NCBI GenBank assembly: GCA_964016885.1
Contig: OZ024749.1
Span: forward strand, 8,680,001 to 8,744,000
Length of the DNA stretch: 64,000 bases
Source of the DNA: Eledone cirrhosa
Lineage: Eukaryota
Reading direction: 5' to 3'
Within the stretch, counting starts at the first letter, position 1. Each line of letters opens with the position of its first letter. The translations under genes and the position numbers were made by a program. Under the pieces are notes generated by a model. The model had not been told where the DNA came from and did no database searches. It was given only the letters and a program-made list of their open reading frames with translations. Shown piece after piece: positions 2,141 through 62,905 of the stretch.

Positions 2141-2413
2141 ACGATTCTCCCTCTGTATCTATGACTCGCTTCTCCCCCTCCCCTCTCCCTCTTTCACCCC
2201 CCCCCCCCTCACCCTCCCTCTCTCTGGAAGAAATCGACTGTGTACAGACCTTGAACTATGAACAAGACACACTGTTCATGACTACAGTGAATTTACGACT
2301 CCGTGTGTTACGAACACACACAGAGAGAGAGAGAGAGAGAGAGAGAGAGAGAGAAAGAGAGAGAGAGAGAGAGAGAGAGAGAGACAGTGTTGCGACGAAT
2401 GGAATTTATTGGG

Positions 2414-2505
2414 CATATTACAATTGTTTCTCTGGCGACCAACTCGAGGCACGATCGATGTGATGATCGAACCTGACTCTGAAAATAGTAAGGTCCTCAG
2501 ATACG
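2414..2505 (-). ncRNA. Type I hammerhead motif (mirror copy, stem II base disrupted)
   Basis: Reverse complement: CGUAU CUGAGGA ... GAAAC AAUU GU A AUAUG. Confidence 0.55.
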
Positions 2506-2521
2506 TCTTGATTGTACGAGA

Positions 2522-2612
2522 CGTATCTGAGGACCTTGCGATTTCAGAGTCAGGTTCGATCATCACATCGATCGTGCCTCGAGCTGGTCGCCAGAGAAAC
2601 AATTGTAATATG
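2522..2612 (+). ncRNA. Type I hammerhead ribozyme motif with long stem II
   Basis: Stem I CGUAU/AUAUG; core CUGAGGA; stem II CUUGCGA/UCGCCAG; GAAA; palindromic stem III ACAAUUGU; GUA triplet. Confidence 0.7.
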
Positions 2613-2754
2613 CCCAATAAATTCCATTCGTCGCAACACTGATTCTCTTTTTTTCTGTGATATCATACTCTGCTCTATGAAAGCATCGAGTGCTCATACA
2701 ACCTACCGTATGGACGCTTTAAGCAACCAACATCAATTCTCTATATATATATCT

Positions 2755-3020
2755 AAAGTTTGTCTTAAGCCAGAAGGCTCATTTGGCCGGTGCTTATCCC
2801 GGTTTCATGGCGTGAAGCGACTGAGAGTAAAAGACTCCCCCCTGGACAGGACGCAGTCCATCGCAGGATTAAACCTCCAGCTATTGCTGGTACTCATTTT
2901 CAGCTGGGTATACTGGAGCAACGTGAAATGAAGTGTTTTGCTCAAGAACACGACACGCAAGCCAGGAATCGAGCCCACGACATTATGATCGTAAGTCCAA
3001 CACCCTTACCACGTGCCTCC
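2755..3020 (-). mobile_element. tRNA-derived CORE-type SINE, family B1
   Basis: tRNA-like head, TGTTCTTGAGCAAAACACTT (CORE-like), CCTGCGATGGAC..CCTGTCCAGGG, tail GAAACCGGGATAAG; full copy also at 19810-20090. Confidence 0.85.
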
Positions 3021-3061
3021 ACACATATATATATATATATATATATATATATATATATATA

Positions 3062-59490: not shown

Positions 59491-60219
59491 AAACAACAAC
59501 AACAACAACAACAACAACAACAACAACAACAATATAATGCTAACATGAAATATGGTTTCGGAAAAATAAATATATGGAATCTTAGTGAAAATCTCACACC
59601 TCTGACTTCGTCTCAGTTCTGTGTTGTGATTGACTCATGGAATGTTCTCACCATTATCACCATCACCATCACCACCATCATCATCATCATCATCATCATC
59701 AAATTCTTCATAACCATCATCATCATCATCACAACCATCATCACCATTCTCACCACCATCATCATCATCAAATTCTTCATAACCATCATTATCACAACCA
59801 TCACCATCACCATTCTCACCATCACCACCATTATCATCATCATCACCATTCTCACCATCATTCTCACCACCATTATCATCATCATCATCATCATCAACAT
59901 CATCCTTATCATCATCAGTAGCAACAAGCAACGAGTCCACTACCACTACATCTTTAGCCACTGCCACCTCCACTATTATTCGGCATAATAAGCAACAACA
60001 ACAACAACAACAACAACAAACAAAACAACAACAATAACAACAACAGCAACAAACACACAAACTACAACAACCACAACGATAGCAACACCAACAACCACCG
60101 CCACAACAATCATCACAACAACAACATAAAATCTAATGAGAATAAATTAAACCGAAATTTAAATTTTGTTCTAAAATGATAAAATTAACTAACCCACCCC
60201 ACCCTCCCCCCGTTCCCCT

Positions 60220-60840
60220 CATCATCCCTACCCTCCTCCTACTACTTCTCCCCCTCCCCCTCTCAACACCATCACCTCCACCCTCCTCCTACTTCTCCCC
60301 CTCCCCTCTCAACACCATCACCTCCACCCTCCTCCTACTTCTCCCCCTCTCCCCCTCTCAACACCACCACCTCCACTCTCCTCCTACTTCTCCCCCTCCC
60401 CTCTCAACACCATCACCTCCACCCTCCTCCTACTTCTCCCCCTACCCCTCTCAACACCATCACCTCCACCCTCCTCCTACTTCTCCCCCTCCCCCTCTCA
60501 ACACCATCACCTCCACCCTCCTCCTACTTCTCCCTTTCCCCTCTCAACACCACCACCTCCACCCTCCTCCTACTTCCCCCCTCTCCCCCTCTCAACACCA
60601 TCATCCCACCCTCCTCCTACTTCTCCCCCTCCCCTCTCAACACCATCACCTCCACCCTCCTCCCACTTCTCCTCTCCCCTCTCAACACCTTCACCTCCAC
60701 CCTCCTCCTACATCTCCCCCTCCCCCTCTCAACACCCCCACATCCACCCCCACCCATACTTCTCCCCCTCTCCCCCTCTCAACACCCCCACCCCCACCCT
60801 ACTTCTCCCCCTCTCCCCCCTCAACACCATCACCCCCGTC
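60220..60840. repeat. About 45-bp C-rich minisatellite
   Basis: CCCTCTCAACACCATCACCTCCACCCTCCTCCTACTTCTCC units. Confidence 0.9.
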
Positions 60841-61549
60841 CCTCTTCTTGTCCCCCTCTACCCCCCTCATCACCCCCACCCAGACATGCCTTTGTGTAGA
60901 TTATTGATTATGTTCGATTTTTTTTTTATATTTGATTTTCTCTAATTACCGCAGGTGGCGCTGGAGTCGAGCTGCTCTCAACCGCCGTCAAACTTCATCG
61001 GAATATATTTACCGGAAATGGTTATAGTTACTTGTGCATGGAATCGTGTTGTGGTTACATTGCATGCTTCCGGTTGAGAGACAGACAGACAGACAGACAG
61101 ACAGACAGAGAGAGAGGAAGAGGGGGCTGAATGAGAATGAGAGAGAAGTGGTAGTACGTGTGAGTGTGGTGGTGAGTGTGAGAGAGAGAAAGATGGTAGT
61201 GTGTGAGAGTGGTAATGGGTGTGGTGGTGGTGATGGTGGGAGAGAGAGAGAGAATGAGGGGAGATTAGTTGAGAGAGAGCAGTAAAGAAAAAAGGAAGGA
61301 TAGATAGATAGAGAGAGAGATAGATAGATAGATAGAGAGAGAGATAGATAGATAGATAGATAGATAGATAGATAGATAGATAGATAGATAGATAGATAGA
61401 TAGATAGATAGATAGATAGACAGACATAAATAGATGGATGAATAGATAGGAAAATTATATAAATTGATATATATATGCGGTGCTCCAGCATGGCCTCAGT
61501 CGGCTGGAATACGTAGTAGATAATAAATAGAATATATTAGAATATATAT

Positions 61550-61860
61550 ATCTTGGTTGTCCATCGTAAACGATGATGACATCTTCTTTATTTTAGTTCC
61601 CGTCTGCTGTGGGCACAAAGTTGGCTGTGGAGGCCGATCCTTGACTTGCAGATCCGGGGACAGTGGGGGAAGAGGAAGAGACTGGAGTCGCTTGGGGCAG
61701 CTGCTGATGGCTTTCTCCTCCTTTCACGGGCCTCAGTAACCTCTGCCCGTCTCTTCTCCTCAAAAGAGTCTTTGGCGCGTCTGGTAAGGGCTCGCCACTC
61801 AGTCCTGTCCTGAGCATGGGACTCGAGTTGTTTTGGGGCGATTCCAGTATGGTTGATGCA
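61550..61860 (-). mobile_element. RTE-clade LINE 3' end with degenerate C2H2 finger
   Basis: Frame absent from the track: AQDRTEWRAL...FEEKRR...PHCPRICKSRIGLHSQLCAH; in (TA)n. Confidence 0.85.
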
Positions 61861-61896
61861 ATATATATATATATATATATATATATATATATATAT

Positions 61897-62905
61897 CGTT
61901 TCTGAATTTGTTTAGCAAGATTCTTTATCTGAAAACGTGTGTTGAAACCGATATTCTTATGCTTTGGGAGGGTCATGTTGCCAATATCAATACAACCCCT
62001 AGAGGTGAATTAGCTTACAAATTTAGAAGGGCCCTAGATGAACATAAACTTAATATTAAGATAGTAGAAAGACAAGGTTCCTCCATAAAAACACTTATTA
62101 GTAATACATACCCTTTTCAAAGACCTCCCTGTATAGATAAGAAATGCATAATCTGTAAACTAAGCCCCCATATTAACTGTAAAACTAGAAATGTAGTATA
62201 TAGCATAAGATGTACTGAAGGACAATGTAGAGATAAAAATATAGTGTACATAGGTGAGACAGCTCGTAGTATAGGGGAACGGATAAATGAACACTGGCGA
62301 GGCCTTCAAGATAGTAAAGAATCATCTGTACTCTACCAACATGCTAAAATAGAACATAAGGGTAAATTAGAGAACATAGAAATAAAAATAGAATCTACAC
62401 ACAGAGAAGACGCAATGTTTAGACAAATCACAGAGGCAATAAACATAAAAGAACTTACAACCAAAATTAAATAGTAAACATGAATGGAATAGCAACATCA
62501 CAACTTACAATTAAGGACAAAATGAAAACACACACATAGAACAAACAACCAACCGGTAACATGTAAATAAACAAATAAATAAACAAATATAAACACACAC
62601 ACATCTGGATGTAACACATGCGGAAACTAAGCACGCAACACACACAAAAACAACATGGCGTAGGACAGAACAAAGGAGAGGCACAAAACAAAGAAAAGAA
62701 TCCCCAGTCACTGAAGAGGTCACATAATGTGTGACGAAAGAACTTTGACAATATATAAACAACCGTCCGGTTATGGAACCAACCAACCAACCGGAAATTT
62801 ATAAATTCTTAAATTTATAAATTTAATTTATAATAAATTGAAGTGAAAGCATGGTGCGCGTGTTTCTTACTGGCAACATGGCCCTCCCAAAGCATAACAA
62901 TATAT
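61897..62905 (+). mobile_element. 5'-truncated Penelope-like element: inverted tail copy, GIY-YIG, HHR-bearing tail
   Basis: C...C..C...CKTRNVVYSIRC...YIGETARSIGERINEH; 61897-61985 is the reverse complement of the family 3' tail. Confidence 0.92.
62706..62750 (+). ncRNA. Minimal hammerhead motif in PLE tail
   Basis: GUCA CUGAAGA GGUCAC-AUAAUGU-GUGAC GAAAG AA CUU UGAC. Confidence 0.75.

Follow-up and report, generated by a model that had tools for sequence, protein, structure and literature searches.

Head-to-head hammerhead foldbacks in the Eledone cirrhosa genome as probable two-ended insertions of Penelope-like elements

The stretch analysed here, referred to throughout as the window, comprises 64,000 nucleotides (nt) of the 3.0 Gb genome of Eledone cirrhosa (contig OZ024749.1, positions 8,680,001 to 8,744,000) and contains four foldbacks, FB1-FB4, whose type I hammerhead ribozyme (HHR) motifs face outwards. 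Each of these foldbacks is probably a single insertion of a Penelope-like element (PLE) that has Hydra-clade motifs. The insertion likely arose from two complementary DNAs (cDNAs), one primed by each strand of a (TA)n target, which became joined head to head. FB2-FB4 are the pseudo-long-terminal-repeat (pLTR) ends of PLEs that carry open reading frames (ORFs), which bears out the link to these elements drawn in a first-pass annotation of the window, and a PLE origin is likely for FB1. Two-ended priming at (TA)n, one of the routes proposed in that annotation, is supported by the assignment of one arm to each of two fixed 3' ends and by tailless arms that often outreach their tailed partners.

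Approximately one third of the window is simple repeat or gap, and the output of a plain inverted-repeat finder is dominated by microsatellites. Mapping by masked self-BLAST recovered the four foldbacks noted previously and found no similarity between any of them, in agreement with their description as mutually dissimilar. FB1 (2385-2738) consists of an inverted repeat at 2385-2641 (94% arm identity), with the right arm continuing to ~2660 and a tail at ~2661-2738; its left end adjoins (GA)n and is ~20 nt shorter than in the rest of the family. FB2 (17295-17927) has a tailless arm on the minus strand (17295-17485), a longer arm on the plus strand (~17504-17818) and a tail (17819-17927), its repeats at 17295-17485 and 17630-17818 being 96% identical. 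In FB3 (34454-34794) the tailless minus-strand arm (~34454-34613) faces a tailed arm (~34624-34706) with its tail at 34707-34794, and the repeats at 34472-34536 and 34626-34690 are 98% identical. FB4 (43477-43903; inverted repeat 43574-43894, 94%) is arranged in the opposite order, with the tail (43477-43565) and tailed minus-strand arm followed by a junction at ~43720-43728 and a tailless arm from 43729 to ~43903.

The foldbacks are free of ORFs locally, as had been noted, but copies of three of the four families at other genomic loci run on into PLE ORFs. At locus L160, inverted FB4 arms enclose an open frame of 821 codons in which FD, YRDD and IYEC..YFG motifs were recognized by eye. FB4 is the pLTR of the Hydra-type PLE P0001, the structure model of which (predicted local distance difference test score, pLDDT, 82) finds its best fold matches in telomerase reverse transcriptase (TERT). 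The hallmark of endonuclease-bearing (EN+) PLEs, a single ORF combining a reverse transcriptase (RT) of telomerase-like type with a C-terminal GIY-YIG endonuclease, is present. FB2 is the pLTR of a PLE with Hydra-clade motifs (P0002) and runs into a frameshifted ORF on both sides. The FB3 family is tied to a Hydra-type endonuclease end in L319, and a long FB3 foldback contains the endonuclease end only. Partial tandems of the form pLTR-ORF-pLTR occur for FB4 (L168) and FB2 (L059, L068, L177 and L178) and were not seen for FB1 or FB3, whereas an optional 3' tail and an inverted 5'-truncated copy are present in all four families.

The Hydra DKT motif appears as SDKTNN in P0001 and as ADKTSN in L177 and L178, and the CxCx5C linker as CNCRIKNKC in P0001 and CNCTKPGTC in P0002, the FB3 piece ending before the linker. 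A CCHH motif is absent, and the conserved Glu and Asn are flanked as CNLC..E..N..CLH, CKLC..E..N..CNH and CKLC..E..N..CRH. The combination of DKT, CxCx5C, CxxC..E..N..CxH and the lack of CCHH appears to fit the Hydra clade as it is defined in PMC8557442; a Neptune-type reading of the foldback-linked ORFs was dropped once they were compared with this definition. The RWK position is occupied by RWT in P0001 and by RWR in the FB2 element, many homologues having RWK. Decayed ORF pieces similar to P0001 are also found in the window at 31908-33233 on the minus strand and probably represent an old Hydra-type copy.

Searches with whole foldbacks gave 2,430 (FB1), 1,093 (FB2), 940 (FB3) and 1,283 (FB4) first-look candidates; such queries favour copies of similar length and were left out of the length and junction statistics. 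Exact patterns matched 5,880 times genome-wide for an FB4 34-mer, 300 times for FB3 and 117 times for FB2, and reversed control patterns gave no matches. Among the first 100 FB4 matches, neighbours within 7 kb form 36 outward pairs, no inward pair and one tandem pair, 20 of the outward pairs being less than 400 nt apart and 16 lying at 0.9-6.2 kb. Arm length is continuous from 0.1 to ~3.7 kb, up to full ORFs. The head-to-tail tandem HHR monomers without an ORF that characterize non-LTR retrozymes are not found (the one tandem among 37 close FB4 pairs encloses an ORF), nor are the symmetric termini and uniform length of MITE (miniature inverted-repeat transposable element) or Foldback elements, one end being tailed and the arms spanning 0.1-3.7 kb. 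A TA tract of at least 10 nt flanks 78 of 82 FB4 structures on both sides. Any target-site duplication is masked by (TA)n, and the one usable empty site already has ~38 nt of TA in the empty form. On G000:C20, at 3.97-5.25 Mb (L106, L108-L111 and L126-L129), one FB1 insertion recurs with its flanks every ~100-130 kb and constitutes a large tandem segmental array.

The FB4 unit is numbered with ATATGTTG starting at +1. On this scale the start of the HHR core is +70 and the predicted cut comes after +124; the ATG is at +339, with site B (approximately +165-172) and site A (+260) between cut and ATG. FB4 arms end at site B or at site A and then pass into (TA)n, and the tails, 80-110 nt long, are on one arm. 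In a position-ordered sample, 36 of 37 FB4 foldbacks pair one tailed with one tailless arm (binomial p = 3e-10) and the remaining one has two tails. The same pairing is seen in ten of ten FB3 foldbacks and in 21 of 24 FB1 pair records, in which loci may repeat; three of these records have no tail and none has two. The elements are thus asymmetric, and larger than the first-pass annotation stated. In some copies the inverted partner consists of tail alone; in L229, L238 and L241 it stops at +164/165 (site B), which fits both primers acting on one RNA. The window contains a case of such a tail-only partner in a Neptune-type family, a fifth two-ended insertion at 61897-62903: an inverted tail piece (61897-61986) precedes a tailless sense copy (61987-62903), in which an HHR at 62711 accompanies a GIY-YIG end whose linker is Cx4CxxC. 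An unexplained strand bias is seen locally over the first 86 Mb of G000:C1 (L134-L212), where 18 of 21 short FB4 foldbacks have a left-hand tail, compared with 15 of 30 among the top genome-wide matches.

In 36 FB4 foldbacks the tailless arm reaches further 5' in ~17, the tailed arm in six and the two are about equal in 13, with two or three of the long cases differing by less than 200 nt and hence less certain. A tailless arm that is longer than the tailed arm beside it cannot be produced, together with that arm, by a single folding cDNA, so that two RNA-templated events are needed. The arms of one foldback nevertheless resemble each other: a mixed, non-random sample of 82 foldbacks has 125 variants common to both arms and 76 private ones, the subfamily markers 103A and 95T agree between arms in 15 of 15 and 11 of 11 cases, and the length of the T run is equal in 58 of 67 cases against 39.6 in shuffles. 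Junctions differ from copy to copy, with overlaps of 0-4 nt or short inserts, and many are perfect palindromes. Several junctions occur within one subfamily, and a single junction form is shared by three subfamilies; this recurrence across subfamilies indicates that junctions are made anew at each insertion, at a palindromic hot spot, rather than inherited from a master copy. The first-pass annotation had looked to a junction recurring at independent loci as the mark of a mobile family and to uniformly unique junctions as its refutation. Junctions do recur, but as the mark of a hot spot, and although most of them differ, the families are highly mobile, so that the second expectation is too strict. 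In L185, ~170 nt of unrelated sequence is caught between two FB4 arms.

The 5' ends also cluster. In 21 short FB4 foldbacks, 30 of 42 arms end between -2 and +4 relative to +1, the full element having TTTTC upstream, and in the window copy the tailless arm has its +1 at 43729 with a G just before it. Genome-wide, 2,502 FB4 arms have a base other than C before +1; the first 100 of these comprise 49 G, 39 T and 12 A, whereas 23% G is expected from window composition. Of 47 G contexts read, partly by eye, ~26 have no templated explanation, and G occurs on both arms in L224 and L307. An extra G at complete 5' ends of L1 has been attributed to the cap (PMC11702581). ATATGTTG is present twice in at least 135 copies and three times in some. 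Weaker clusters of 5' ends are found for FB3 at C|ATATG and for FB1 at C|ATAGG. Just upstream of the HHR cut site only 102 matches deviate, and 12 of the 30 that were read are truncations; the small number of deviations implies that cut RNA is at most a minor template. Runs X5 and X6, which come from two other studies, contain contigs with loose ends at the same three boundaries, evidence against an assembly artefact.

These features can be accommodated by the following scheme. A promoter in the pLTR would start a capped RNA at +1 (C|ATATG), and the PLE protein, probably as a dimer, would nick both target strands and begin reverse transcription at two internal positions, sites A and B. Short, strong-stop-like cDNAs that run off the cap with addition of G and often anneal through their palindromic ATAT end would arise from priming in the 5' pLTR, and the arms of 0.5-3.7 kb from priming in the downstream pLTR. 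Since the HHR lies within the copied stretch, the template would mostly not have been self-cleaved. Both cDNAs may come from one RNA, the cDNA begun at site A displacing the one begun at site B, which is the least certain step. Extension on two strands from two starts that bound the tail fits a published in vitro system in which a PLE protein is reported to nick and extend both strands, likewise starting at two sites, one at each boundary of the tail, and not to need HHR cleavage (PMC11167929). It is possible, although we would stop short of calling it probable, that a strong-stop-like foldback is the dominant PLE product: with a single capped, uncut RNA as template, an RT dimer would prime both target strands at two fixed sites, strand-displace, run off the cap and sometimes realign so that the first 8 template bases are copied again, in the manner of telomerase, and the short units from +1 to the tail would keep promoter and ribozyme and may themselves be copied. 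If this is correct, a single mechanism would account for PLE tails and inverted repeats alike.

Several observations weigh against this interpretation. About 21 of the 47 G contexts are otherwise explained, ten as partner-templated, six as reiterations of the first 8 bases and five as ambiguous, and a terminal-transferase bias of the RT could add the extra base as well. The start site and the cap are both features that we infer. FB3 5' ends are more scattered than those of FB4, and for FB2 only two copies end near the equivalent motif among 30 loci. The variants shared between arms could reflect gene conversion or a single source active at a time. The in vitro system is Poseidon, with a tail of 30-40 nt, and not a Hydra element (PMC11167929). 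P0001 gave no RT match in Pfam or in a PDB sequence-profile search, and its fold match is modest (E = 4e-7). For FB1, tblastn with three PLE proteins as queries located no contiguous ORF in L031-L049, L100-L129, L217 or L218.

The foldbacks could instead form a non-autonomous, retrozyme- or SINE-like (short interspersed nuclear element) family, transcribed from short copies and mobilized by a PLE protein as the whole hairpin or as an RNA from +1 to the tail. This is unlikely, although short copies are abundant, begin at +1 and may keep an internal promoter of the Penelope type (PMC2377424), some junctions recur, FB1 lacks a detected ORF, and subfamilies B and C account for 66 of the 169 short arms and for 4 of the 65 long ones, a contrast biased by the finding of most long arms with a pattern that excludes B and C. 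The gradation of arm length into full ORFs, the sharing of one junction by three subfamilies and the variety of junctions within one are difficult to reconcile with such a family, as is the absence of tandem HHR arrays (one tandem in 37 close pairs). The distinct non-autonomous or retrozyme-like family suggested by the first-pass annotation is consequently not upheld for FB2-FB4, which are ends of ORF-bearing PLEs with junctions made anew. For rotifer Penelope, junction palindromes have been reported and an antisense transcript that primes itself at the palindrome has been proposed to give the head-to-head structure (PMC3846280). Many junctions here are perfect palindromes and identical arms would result from this route, which we nonetheless consider improbable, as it predicts neither two fixed 3' ends, one per arm, nor a sense C|ATA stop with an extra G, nor G on both arms as in L224 and L307, nor tail-only partners.

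Snap-back of one cDNA at its 3' end, which is then copied until it anneals to the other target end, would make the arms match in variants and T-run length, and could account for the six foldbacks with a longer tailed arm and the 13 symmetric ones. It cannot give the ~17 of 36 with a longer tailless arm, the FB3 and FB4 copies of the window included, and is therefore contradicted as the sole route; we regard it as very improbable as a general account and as possible for a subset. MITE-like DNA transposons or assembly artefacts might be suggested by the long terminal inverted arms and TA flanks, but are scarcely credible given asymmetric ends, the lack of a fixed length, arms that continue into RT ORFs and the three boundaries that recur as loose contig ends in X5 and X6. 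Two RNA-templated cDNAs primed from opposite target strands thus remain the preferred explanation.

Hammerhead motifs were sought with a type I descriptor (CUGANGA, a stem II allowed to be long, GAAA, a palindromic 6-nt loop III, UH and stem I). In its strict form it gives nine matches in the window against a mean of 0.07 in 30 block shuffles, and seven of the nine are inside foldbacks, every one pointing outward: FB1 at 2527 (plus) and 2500 (minus), FB2 at 17658 (plus) and 17457 (minus), FB3 at 34555 (minus) and FB4 at 43801 (plus) and 43665 (minus), with the loop III sequences CAATTG, CAATTG, TATATA and TGCGCA. The first-pass annotation had described outward type I motifs with a palindromic stem III in each foldback, which holds for all four except that FB3 has a full HHR in one arm only: its tailless arm carries the motif from 34555, while the tailed arm begins within stem II and retains a half motif at 34640 (plus) without the CUGAAGA half. 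Three further motifs with a 2-nt loop III (42997 and 62711 on the plus strand and 13321 on the minus strand, the last with stems that look decayed) bring the count to 12 complete motifs and one half, fewer than the 'about 15' given earlier.

The FB1 motif (2520-2614, plus) comprises CUGAGGA at 2527, a 62-nt stem II, GAAA at 2596 and a predicted cut after 2607, with its mirror on the minus strand from 2500; FB2 (17654-17768, plus) has CUGACGA at 17658, an 88-nt stem II and GAAA at 17753, mirrored from 17457; and FB4 (43793-43864, plus) has CUGAUGA at 43801, GAAA at 43845, loop III UGCGCA and a predicted cut after 43856, mirrored from 43665. The stems are wholly different among families with pairing retained, and the FB4 variant 63A changes a G-U pair of stem I to A-U. 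Stems I and II both form in unconstrained folding of FB3, FB4 and the motifs at 3374 and 42997; the HHR fold of FB1 was not recovered in this way. A scan against Rfam included no hammerhead model among the 150 matches listed of 363, only microsatellite-driven microRNA matches being present there. The motifs match published PLE hammerheads (PMC4209133). Folding of a read-through foldback RNA yields a single long hairpin (-262 kcal/mol, z = -32), which would be expected to seal the HHR, and the presence of one sense HHR per strand precludes a dimer in cis.

Resemblance to published Hydra-clade elements (Craig et al., 2021; PMC8557442) extends beyond DKT, the CxCx5C linker, the lack of CCHH and the CxxC/CxH residues around Glu and Asn to a canonical HHR, (TA)n insertion, partial tandems, an inverted 5'-truncated copy and an optional tail. 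The elements differ in having RWT or RWR rather than RWK, an FB4 unit of 3.9 kb rather than generally less than 3 kb and tails of 80-110 nt rather than 30-40; short, ORF-less foldbacks with a fixed 5' stop, present here in thousands, are not mentioned in the accessible text of that paper. Anolis Poseidon in vitro (Frangieh et al., 2024; PMC11167929) shares two internal RT starts that bound the tail, nicking and extension of both strands, AT-rich targets, a predicted dimer and an uncut RNA substrate, but its HHR overlaps the ATG and its starts lie inside the ORF, whereas here the HHR and both sites are upstream of the ATG. The accessible text on Poseidon does not deal with the way in which inverted insertions are finished. 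Drosophila and Adineta Penelope (PMC2377424, PMC3846280) share head-to-head pLTRs with a tail on one, junction palindromes and an initiator-like pLTR motif; few copies were available and antisense self-priming was proposed, whereas the copy statistics here indicate two sense-templated cDNAs. In L1 twin priming (PMC11702581) the second primer likewise comes from the reciprocal target end, with microhomology joins and an extra G at complete 5' ends, but there is hardly any overlap between the L1 segments; in the present foldbacks both start sites are fixed and, in most cases, one and the same stretch has been copied into both cDNAs, which produces a long inverted repeat. Non-LTR retrozymes (bioRxiv 10.64898/2026.07.22.740005) and the minimal HHRs of PLEs (PMC4209133) share a PLE origin and a type I HHR in which helix III is palindromic and a bulged base precedes stem II. 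Retrozymes form head-to-tail tandem arrays, whereas the foldbacks pair head to head and hold a single sense HHR on each strand.

Publications on PLEs already cover tails, the targeting of (TA)n and 5'-truncated copies in inverted orientation (PMC8557442, PMC3846280, PMC2377424), and the elements described here are new members of a known clade: the class is known, and the copy-level statistics were not encountered in the literature searched. The available text of an octopus repeat annotation (PMC13282606) names Penelope families without such structural detail, and the open-access literature searched yielded no account of a one-tail rule, of a stop at +1 or of PLE foldbacks arising by two-ended priming. 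The formation of tandem and inverted PLE structures and the microsatellite bias are named as open problems by Craig et al. (2021; PMC8557442). With thousands of young copies of a single family and an ORF that looks intact, this genome makes PLE insertion testable. The copies place the ribozyme, a likely transcription start and the two sites of RT initiation on one RNA; they predict that each foldback has one arm with a tail and one without, that the template is uncut, and that an extra G and an 8-nt reiteration occur. Near-perfect hairpins seeded densely in AT microsatellites are also a possible source of double-stranded RNA, and automatic annotation would mislabel these copies as MITEs.

Other HHR-bearing pieces are present in the window. 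A tailed, 5'-truncated copy of the same Neptune-type family as the insertion at 61897-62903 lies at 42593-43237 (plus, HHR at 42997), and a 627-codon open frame at L177:6892-8772, with a weak RVT_1 match, belongs to the Neptune-type family of window positions 61977-62480. Two short solo pieces lie between (TA)n tracts, one at 41813-41996 (plus, CUGAGGA at 41897) and one at 3290-3436 (minus, CUGAUGA at 3374, non-palindromic loop III), and the decayed motif of the 2-nt loop III type at 13321 occupies 13280-13340 (minus). A repeat at 3065-3256 with an internal hairpin (3143-3256) bounded by (TA)n is possibly another PLE end; elsewhere it often flanks foldback copies and forms TA-centred inverted pairs of its own. 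Two copies of a repeat ending at (TA)n are located at 34246-34396 and 42199-42344, one of them adjoining FB3.

An abundant dispersed repeat of ~200 nt at 793-1006 and ~12 other places is SINE-like in appearance. Tandem arrays with a 117-bp unit (36529-36983 and 50653-53520) match part of a dispersed repeat at 16662-16861 and 2753-3012 and look like a SINE-derived satellite. Minisatellites occur at 24006-24516 (~22 bp), 63277-63805 (~26/52 bp) and 4862-5157 (~62 bp), an assembly gap of 200 N occupies 46201-46400, and a long dispersed repeat pair at 8778-10329 and 29042-30815 shows 87-90% identity.

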